From IMG/VR virus record IMGVR_UViG_2534681774_000029: a stretch of 31,479 bases of DNA, one strand, 5' to 3'. Of the stretch, positions 7,148 to 7,726 are shown piece by piece; position 1 is the first letter of the stretch, and every line of letters starts with the position of its first letter. The notes under the pieces are model-generated. The model was given only the letters and a program-made list of their open reading frames with translations. It did not search any database and was not told the origin of the DNA. A program made the translations under genes and the position numbers. Source of the DNA: a virus. Its lineage: Duplodnaviria > Heunggongvirae > Uroviricota > Caudoviricetes.

Positions 7148-7171
7148 GTGATCGCTGAATTAACGGCAGCA

Positions 7172-7663
7172 ATGACGGCTATTCGTGAAACAGCCCAGAT
7201 TGCAAAACTAATGAACGAGGCAAAAACTCAAGCTGAAGTAAATGCGGCTATTGGTGAGCTGAACTCAAAGCTTGCGTCTATTCAGCGCGAATGCGTGTCT
7301 CTCGTTGAACTGGTGGGCTCTTATCAAGAAATAAATGCTTCTCTCAAAGCTAAAATTGCAGAATTCGAAAACTTTGAGGCTCAGACGGAAGGCTATATCC
7401 TTAACCAACTTGAGTCGGGTACTTTTGTATACTCGAAGGAGGTAATCGTGAACGGTGGCAGCATAACCATGCATCTTTGCCCAAAATGTTTTGGACAAAA
7501 GATAGTATCGATACTTCAACCATTCCCGGTTAGCGAAGATGAGCTTTTTCATAAAAGCAGGTGCCTCCACTGTGAAAATAAGTTTCTGATGAATAAAAAT
7601 CCGGATTACGTATCGCCTCCATCCATTGAGGAGTTGTCCAGAAAACTTAACGGCAATCTGTAG
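7172..7663 (+). CDS. Orphan coiled-coil / C-terminal zinc-ribbon protein (about 163 aa), function unknown
   Basis: ORF in opposite orientation to both flanking operons. N-terminal region has heptad-like character (AELTAAMTAIRETAQIAKLMNEAKTQAEVNAAIGELNSKLASIQ...); C-terminus has CPKC...(26 aa)...CLHC. An alternative GTG start at 7148 has an AAGAG ribosome-binding site. Followed by its own terminator. Confidence 0.6.
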   Translation: MTAIRETAQIAKLMNEAKTQAEVNAAIGELNSKLASIQRECVSLVELVGSYQEINASLKAKIAEFENFEAQTEGYILNQLESGTFVYSKEVIVNGGSITMHLCPKCFGQKIVSILQPFPVSEDELFHKSRCLHCENKFLMNKNPDYVSPPSIEELSRKLNGNL

Positions 7664-7702
7664 ATTACTACTGTTGTGGATATCCAGATTGTTAAAGAGC
7701 TA

Positions 7703-7726
7703 AGCGTCCTGTAGGGCGCTTTTTTG
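7703..7726 (+). terminator. Rho-independent terminator of the orphan gene
   Basis: AGCGTCC-TGTA-GGGCGCT hairpin (one G-U pair) followed by TTTTTTG. Confidence 0.6.

Follow-up and report, generated by a model that had tools for sequence, protein, structure and literature searches.

What is the function of a lone gene that is read against its neighbours, with a terminator of its own, next to the repressor gene of a lambdoid prophage? The question is raised by a 31,479-nucleotide (nt) stretch of viral DNA (Caudoviricetes; IMG/VR record IMGVR_UViG_2534681774_000029), hereafter the window, which is an SfV/ST64B-like lambdoid prophage of Escherichia coli. Coordinates refer to the whole window and to the plus strand unless stated otherwise. 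A preliminary description made from the sequence had taken the gene for an orphan encoding a coiled-coil and zinc-ribbon protein, and had suggested a superinfection-exclusion or anti-phage factor or else a regulator of an adjacent structured region. The gene in question is

7148–7663, plus strand: Rip1-family gene with a GTG start and a TAG stop (7661–7663), 171 amino acids (aa)

Its sequence and predicted fold make it a new, divergent representative of Rip1, a family described before, and it is located in a slot of the sieB type. We put at roughly three in four (0.75) the probability that it encodes a single-protein abortive-infection defence of this family, with the mechanism assigned by homology.

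A comparison with PHROGs assigned the window protein to phrog_1244 ('unknown function'; E 9e-60), and Rip1 of phage HK446, HkaP of HK620 and gp30 of JBD30 belong to the same group, all four matching end to end (E 9e-60 to 8e-51). A large-database sequence search returned 123 clusters of relatives across Enterobacterales, all labelled hypothetical, and 43 homologues from these clusters were used to build a family profile. This profile matched chain L of PDB entry 9oox, 'ring interacting pore 1 (Rip1)', with an E value of 9.8e-20 over positions 5–156 of 172, and the window protein as a single sequence matched the same chain with an E value of 2.7e-7. The entry is a cryo-electron microscopy structure of HK446 Rip1 bound to the small terminase of phage T6; HK446_037 matches the PDB chain at 100% over the aligned stretch displayed, and both are 164 aa long. 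In BLASTP comparisons the window protein was 27% identical to HK446_037 (E 4e-11) and 29% identical to JBD30 gp30 over residues 1–153 (E 9e-20). Searches of phage genomes with tblastn located homologues in HK446, in HK620, HK630 and HK629 (HkaP) and in many Pseudomonas Mu-like phages, including JBD30, DMS3, MP42 and D3112 (orf25), while near-identical copies of the gene are present in the isolated phages PhiR49_1 and PhiR29. The term orphan does not fit this gene, as a search of 1.84 billion cluster representatives (50% identity) with the family profile gave 2,641 relatives at E ≤ 1e-3, of which 920 also reach E ≤ 1e-10; nearly all of the 150 best relatives listed are 140–210 aa in length and are matched over most of it. 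Scans of the window protein against Pfam, NCBIfam and PADLOC v2 gave sub-threshold coiled-coil noise only. One homologue, gene 25 of Pseudomonas phage VW-6B (2495–3001 of comparison locus L014), is labelled 'ATP-dependent chaperone ClpB' in GenBank, almost certainly in error.

The predicted structure points in the same direction. An AlphaFold2 model built on the alignment (predicted local distance difference test, pLDDT, 91) contains helices at residues 2–23 and 28–79 followed by a β-rich domain. A Foldseek search of the PDB gave confident matches to 9oox_L and 9oox_M only (probability 1.00, E 5e-7 to 8e-7, template-modelling score on the target 0.53–0.72, 28% identity), with the next match at E 0.2. 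Remote-homology search and structure prediction, two of the analyses that the preliminary description had proposed, thus both lead to Rip1 and PDB 9oox. The motifs CPKC and CLHC contribute four cysteines (C111, C114, C139 and C142) that are invariant in the 43 homologues and align with those of the HK446, HK620 and JBD30 proteins, and these would form the predicted zinc ribbon; VY and ILQ motifs are likewise invariant across the subfamily of the window protein and these three phages. The ribbon had earlier been written as CPKC-(26 aa)-CLHC: both motifs are present, and the spacer is 24 aa. The helices taken for a coiled coil are found in the model, and correspond to what a review (PMC13434031) describes as the N-terminal amphipathic helix region of Rip1. 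Their hydrophobic moments, a crude measure, reach 0.41 and lie within the range of HK446 Rip1, HkaP and JBD30 gp30.

The gene itself is well defined. An open frame extends over 6884–7663 on the plus strand and holds the sole plus-strand gene between yfdP and cI. Of the 43 aligned homologues, all open with MIAEL or MLAEL, and RefSeq WP_000559922.1 (labelled 'hypothetical protein') uses the same start; the start was therefore placed at GTG 7148, giving 171 aa. The 163-aa frame of the preliminary description, which would begin at an internal ATG at 7172, was accordingly right as a coding frame and too short. A Shine–Dalgarno-like AAGAG (7135–7139) lies 8 nt 5' of the GTG. Comparison of the open reading frame (ORF) with two copies of about 94.6% nucleotide identity from a second allele group (loci L070 and L064) gave a ratio of non-synonymous to synonymous polymorphism (pN/pS) of 0.16–0.19, from which we conclude that it is a real coding gene under purifying selection. 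Minus-strand ORFs that overlie the region (101 aa, 7265–7570; 123 aa, 6692–7063) were rejected as frame artefacts, conservation tracking the plus frame.

What such a protein might do is indicated by the prototypes. In a review of the work of Patel et al. (2026), Rip1 is described as a single prophage-encoded protein, non-toxic alone, with relatives widespread in Proteobacteria and chiefly in prophages; Pseudomonas phages that escape it carry mutations in the portal, whereas in E. coli phages the escape mutations lie in the small terminase (PMC13434031). According to the same text, 12 Rip1 subunits assemble round a ring of 11 small-terminase subunits, the ring being contacted by the C-terminal half of the protein and the N-terminal part being an amphipathic helix, and the resulting complex is a pore that releases dye from liposomes, perforates cells and ends infection prematurely (PMC13434031). 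A second article cites Rip1 as a protein that senses the small subunit of the terminase (PMC13601566).

By analogy, the rip1-like protein would be made in the lysogen from a promoter of its own and would be harmless alone, since the gene has its own leader, its own terminator and an orientation opposite to that of the lytic operon. Once an infecting phage expresses its late genes, its ring oligomers (small terminase or portal) would serve as a template, about twelve subunits would gather round the ring via their C-terminal zinc-ribbon/β domains, and the N-terminal amphipathic helices would go on to form an inner-membrane pore, so that the cell would be permeabilized before progeny mature and the infection would abort. 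Ring templating, assembly and pore formation are steps reported for the prototypes (PMC13434031; PDB 9oox), and for the window protein they are deduced from homology. The superinfection-exclusion or anti-phage role that had been proposed for the gene is supported to this extent, because the homology to a characterized defence protein covers both the full-length sequence and the predicted fold.

Conservation within the subfamily may indicate where the specificity for the trigger resides. Mean pairwise identity is 65% in helix 1, 57% in helix 2 and 51% in the β region, 62% around the first cysteine pair with SILQP and 45% in the region of the second cysteine pair, and falls to 25% in the loop between the cysteine pairs (126–138) and to 21% in the C-terminal tail (151–171). 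As the loop and the tail are hypervariable, and as the C-terminal half is the part that touches the trigger ring in the review, both are candidate determinants of trigger specificity.

Several observations weigh against this assignment. Identity to the tested Rip1 proteins is only 27–29%, so that the prototypes may be no guide to its trigger specificity, or even to whether it is active; the amphipathicity of the N-terminal helices of the window protein is only moderate; and a σ70 consensus scan gave no plus-strand promoter upstream of the gene. The host prophage also looks defective (an integrase cut by IS679 and a KilA-N pseudogene), which alone is no argument against function. If the assignment holds, it offers a concrete and testable defence function for prophages in which this gene is labelled hypothetical. 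The kind of system is already known; what is worth pursuing is the trigger of this clade, its upstream box and leader, and the possibility of antisense self-protection, which are considered below.

To the left of the gene, on the minus strand, lie yfdT, a gene for a phage protein, yfdR, a yfdQ-family gene and yfdP; to its right it is convergent with cI (7891–8517, minus strand; Peptidase_S24 and HTH_3), beyond which cro begins at 8615 on the plus strand. The features between the stop codon of the gene and cI are

7702–7727, plus strand: intrinsic terminator of the rip1-like gene, an 8-bp stem (7702–7721; AAGCGTCC/GGGCGCTT) followed by TTTTTTG

7733–7795, minus strand: conserved block of 63 nt, common to prophages with different cI types

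7809–7837, minus strand: predicted pL, with a -35 element TTGTCA (7837–7832), a 17-nt spacer and a -10 element TAGATT (7814–7809), overlapping the operator-like CTAAGTTAAGTTAG

7838–7868, minus strand: terminator-like hairpin and T-run directly after the cI stop, read from the sequence and a candidate end of the cI transcript

The prediction of pL is based on a consensus match and on a motif common to the cI–cro intergenic region: the palindrome CTAAG-N4-CTTAG occurs there at 8541–8554 and 8589–8602, and its variant CTAAGTTAAGTTAG falls within the spacer of the predicted pL, which supports the pL/oL assignment. The predicted leftward transcript starts with the conserved block, which contains a GC-rich hairpin-like stretch (GGCAGGACGCCC...GCCGCCTGGGGC) and would constitute its 5' leader before it runs antisense through the gene. 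A role in antitermination, like that of nut or put, is conceivable for the block, since no N-like gene was seen between the predicted pL and the early-left genes. Three elements of the preliminary description are thereby borne out, namely the intrinsic terminator, the orientation towards cI and an antisense relation to the predicted leftward transcription from pL.

Because the predicted pL lies between cI and the rip1-like gene, the gene is downstream of pL on the opposite strand, in a slot like that of sieB and not that of rex. In lambda, sieB is a plus-strand gene that adjoins N, downstream of pL, while rexAB is found between cI and oL; rip1 of HK446 and hkaP of HK620 and HK630 occupy the sieB slot between N and cIII. 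The position had been called equivalent to that of rex or sieB; the second half of this comparison stands (downstream of the predicted pL, opposite strand, sieB box upstream) and the first does not, as the gene is not between cI and oL like rexAB.

Across the 14 contexts, without exception, genes of this type lie on the strand opposite to the adjacent phage genes that have been called or annotated; at the Serratia locus such neighbours were called on the downstream side only. Immunity or early-left contexts comprise the window, HK446, HK620, HK630, vB_EcoM-611R5 and prophages of Citrobacter, Lelliottia, Edwardsiella and Serratia; the others are the Mu-like early region of RcWaterboi, positions beside the terminase in JBD30 and VW-6B, a position between the lysis genes and the terminase in Arsenophonus and one between antiterminator Q and holin in P0140. 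Such counter-orientation usually marks an accessory gene of a prophage.

The same data bear on the alternative that survives best, that the protein has the Rip1 fold and serves the cycle of its own prophage, by modulating the prophage's own terminase or portal or by timing lysis. Rip1-type proteins bind terminase or portal rings (PMC13434031), several homologues adjoin terminase or lysis genes, and the prophage has lambda-like packaging ORFs, recognized by size (181 aa, 20082–20627; 641 aa, 20602–22527; 533 aa, 22727–24328). However, a strand opposite to the lytic genes in every context, together with a separate terminator, is the signature of an accessory gene and not of a morphogenesis gene, and an identical gene is found beside many different phage backbones. 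We regard a role in the prophage's own cycle as improbable.

Detailed comparison with known members brings out both likenesses and differences. Like HK446 Rip1, the window protein belongs to phrog_1244, aligns over its full length, shares the four cysteines and is of similar size (171 versus 164 aa), with a predicted fold of long N-terminal helices and a C-terminal β/zinc-ribbon domain, and in both phages a lone gene opposes the pL operon behind a box of about 32 nt and a leader with two C-rich repeats. Unlike it, the window protein shares only 27% identity, has a different loop between the cysteine pairs, lacks an N-terminal extension of about 10 aa and has a C-terminal tail (about 151–171) that HK446 Rip1 is without; and HK446 rip1 lies between N and cIII, whereas the window gene directly follows the pL leader, with no N gene there. 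The resemblance to the proteins of Pseudomonas Mu-like prophages (JBD30 gp30, D3112 orf25) lies in phrog_1244 membership (JBD30 gp30) and in a lone, counter-oriented gene; host and phage type differ for JBD30 gp30, which is in the late region and not, like the window gene, in the early-left/immunity region. JBD30 gp30 adjoins a 550-aa ORF annotated as hypothetical, which we take to be the large terminase. The Pseudomonas Rip1 prototype lies between the small and large terminase genes (PMC13434031). HkaP of HK620, HK630 and HK629 shares phrog_1244, 28% identity, the slot and the box; no experimental work on HkaP was found in the literature, and its label 'putative superinfection exclusion protein' is by position only.

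That label leads to the possibility of a SieB-like exclusion factor acting by another mechanism, as occupancy of the sieB slot might suggest. SieB is a prophage accessory function directed against other phages, and is described as membrane-associated. As with lambda sieB, the window gene is downstream of pL on the opposite strand and convergent with the gene next to pL, and has the upstream box and two analogous C-rich repeats (ACCCCTACAG in lambda) at a similar spacing. The protein, on the other hand, shows homology to Rip1 instead: the SieB family is absent among its 11 weak Pfam matches (E ≤ 1), no direct comparison with SieB having been run, and a scan of residues 1–106 in 18-residue segments revealed no hydrophobic transmembrane-like stretch (mean hydrophobicity ≤ 0.32). 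Fold and presumably mechanism differ from those of SieB, and we consider this explanation very unlikely. Encoded in the immunity region, the prophage defence RexAB acts on the membrane; unlike its two genes, which are co-transcribed with cI between cI and oL, the window gene is single, on the other strand and on the far side of the predicted pL, and the Rex family is absent among the Pfam matches of the protein (E ≤ 1).

An inert remnant in a decaying prophage is rated as low as the SieB-like factor. The integrase is cut by IS679 and other prophage genes are pseudogenes, but the frame of the rip1-like gene is intact with a low pN/pS, near-identical copies occur in the isolated phages named above, and a query of 1,211 bp spanning the locus (6680–7890) is covered to at least 80% in 383 of 5,426 complete E. 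coli genomes (about 7%). This query is 100% identical to E. coli FDAARGOS_1059, the source of the RefSeq annotation used here.

Four further features were recognized in the flanks of the gene:

7047–7079, no strand assigned: box of about 32 nt (TGCCTGCTTTTAGCCACATCAGGCGAGGTGG; TGCCTG(T)CTTTTARCCACATCAGGCNNGGTGG), left edge of the slot

7080–7147, plus strand: conserved leader with two direct TCCCCAACAACAA repeats (7088–7100 and 7121–7133)

7087–7115, plus strand: candidate weak promoter, TTCCCC (7087–7092), 17 nt, TAATCT (7110–7115)

7665–7690, no strand assigned: right arm of a 26-nt inverted repeat, 85% complementary to the left arm at 7111–7136

The box is found upstream of lambda sieB (L101, 1395–1421), HK446 rip1 (L006, 2840–2871), HK620 hkaP (L007, 2897–2928) and HK630 hkaP and in vB_EcoM-611R5 and a Citrobacter prophage, and in SfV and mEp460 the replaced cargo has its left breakpoint there. 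On the plus strand the box does not resemble a σ70 promoter; read on the minus strand, it might serve as promoter for a neighbouring RNA described below. The promoter geometry of the leader recurs in lambda (TACCCC-17-TAAACT) and HK446 (TACCCC-17-TAAAAT). In each of these leaders a C-rich motif (TCCCCAACAACAA in the window, ACCCCTACAG in lambda and HK446) is present as two direct copies spaced by about 33 nt, and the -10-like hexamer lies 17 nt past the first of them (TAATCT, TAAACT and TAAAAT, respectively). From this conserved geometry we infer that the leader comprises a weak promoter and a 5' untranslated region; the transcript would be expected to start at about 7120–7125. The leader is 94–98% identical in distant alleles (loci L064–L096) in which the coding sequence is 70–72% identical.

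In effect, the right arm repeats the C-rich leader motif a third time, in inverted orientation, directly after the stop codon. The inverted repeat could reflect pairing between the 5' and 3' ends of the mRNA, a protein-binding site or a recombination scar. A related pair brackets unrelated cargo in phage Kati; since a flanking inverted repeat was sought and not found in HK446, HK620 and JBD30, it is no general feature of rip1.

These signals appear to travel as a unit. In an alignment with SfV, SfIV, Kati and mEp460 the left block (6600–7077) and the right block (7732–7795) are conserved and the cargo between them varies. Kati and SfIV have the leader (to 7131) and the terminator (from 7684) in common with the window, around an unrelated 144-aa ORF. 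In the second allele group (94–95% nucleotide identity), yfdP, the right block and the small RNA (sRNA) block to the left of the box have been lost, and box, leader and ORF are retained along with the inverted-repeat arm on the 3' side as far as ...CCAGATTGTTAAAGAGC. Box, leader, ORF and 3' repeat arm (the 7664–7700 region) move together between phage backbones. Among 80 IMG/VR loci, copies of the gene at least 99% identical adjoin many different immunity regions, most of them without the pL, cI and cro of the window. The gene therefore does not co-vary with the cI immunity type, a correlation that the preliminary description had suggested looking for.

The slot looks like a cargo hotspot. Other small genes in the same place are SfIV_36/Kati (L004, 2967–3401), those of SfV (L002, 2936–3181 and 3099–3395) and that of mEp460 (L005, 2902–3270); in SfV they include orf33 and an unannotated 81-aa plus-strand ORF, and in mEp460 an HTH_17 protein. 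Comparison of this alternative cargo (SfIV_36/Kati, SfV orf33 and the 81-aa ORF, the mEp460 HTH_17 protein) with defence families gave no match above noise. Homologous recombination within the conserved expression signals is the simplest explanation of the exchange, and a dedicated exchange mechanism is possible. In sequence, the slot of lambda sieB and the slot left of cI in SfV/ST64B-type prophages have the same upstream module and interchangeable cargo, a relation that should help in mining prophages for defences. A gene of ST64B that is expressed during lysogeny, STMMW_20121 (Owen et al., bioRxiv 10.1101/787010), might sit in this slot or belong to this family, but a link was sought and not established: the reference ST64B record has no gene annotated in the slot, and no Salmonella homologue carries the STMMW_20121 tag.

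The constant counter-orientation suggests that the gene could be switched off by lytic transcription when the prophage is induced, and permits a further, tentative reading, which we hold to be possible and rather doubtful. The orientation may be a self-protection switch, with expression in the lysogen from the gene's own weak promoter; on induction, strong antisense transcription from pL or the late operon would silence the gene by transcriptional interference or antisense RNA, so that rings of the prophage's own terminase and portal would not lead to suicide. The escape from SieB by sas/Esc in P22 would be a functional analogue of such antisense self-protection. In a related reading, the box–leader–inverted-repeat unit (about 7047–7700) might be a portable platform for expression by which lambdoid phages exchange different defence cargo.

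To the left of the box lies the structured region of which the gene had been suggested to be a regulator:

6813–7036, minus strand: STnc100-like prophage sRNA (RF02076, 40.3 bits against a gathering score of 47, E 2e-7)

The match is sub-threshold, covers the full model length and has its own terminator hairpin, inside a conserved non-coding block of about 400 nt (approximately 6680–7046); a search of the whole window with Rfam gathering thresholds gave nothing, and the match came from a permissive search only. A 2026 preprint relates STnc100 to the prophage sRNA PasD. The weakest alternative, a zinc-ribbon nucleic-acid-binding regulator of this sRNA or of pL transcripts, can draw on the frequent binding of nucleic acids by zinc ribbons and on a gene that abuts both the sRNA-like block and the pL leader, but is most unlikely given that 3,047 of the 5,426 E. 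coli genomes match part of the 6680–7890 query and only 383 cover at least 80% of it, that in the phages examined and in other prophages the block is kept with other cargo or none, that the second allele group keeps the gene without the block, that homologues occupy late-operon slots with no sRNA neighbour and that the only structural match is Rip1; no support was found for the suggested regulation.

Two annotations of the matching genome concern the surroundings of the gene. RefSeq places a frameshifted 'hypothetical protein' pseudogene at about 6692–7003, across the STnc100-like block, which is probably a mis-call of non-coding sequence. At about 1–3900 of the window, an IS679 element of the IS66 family (tnpA, tnpB and transposase) interrupts the integrase; an excisionase-like helix-turn-helix gene is truncated and, further right, the KilA-N gene has an internal stop. 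The prophage is probably grounded, while its rip1-like gene is intact.

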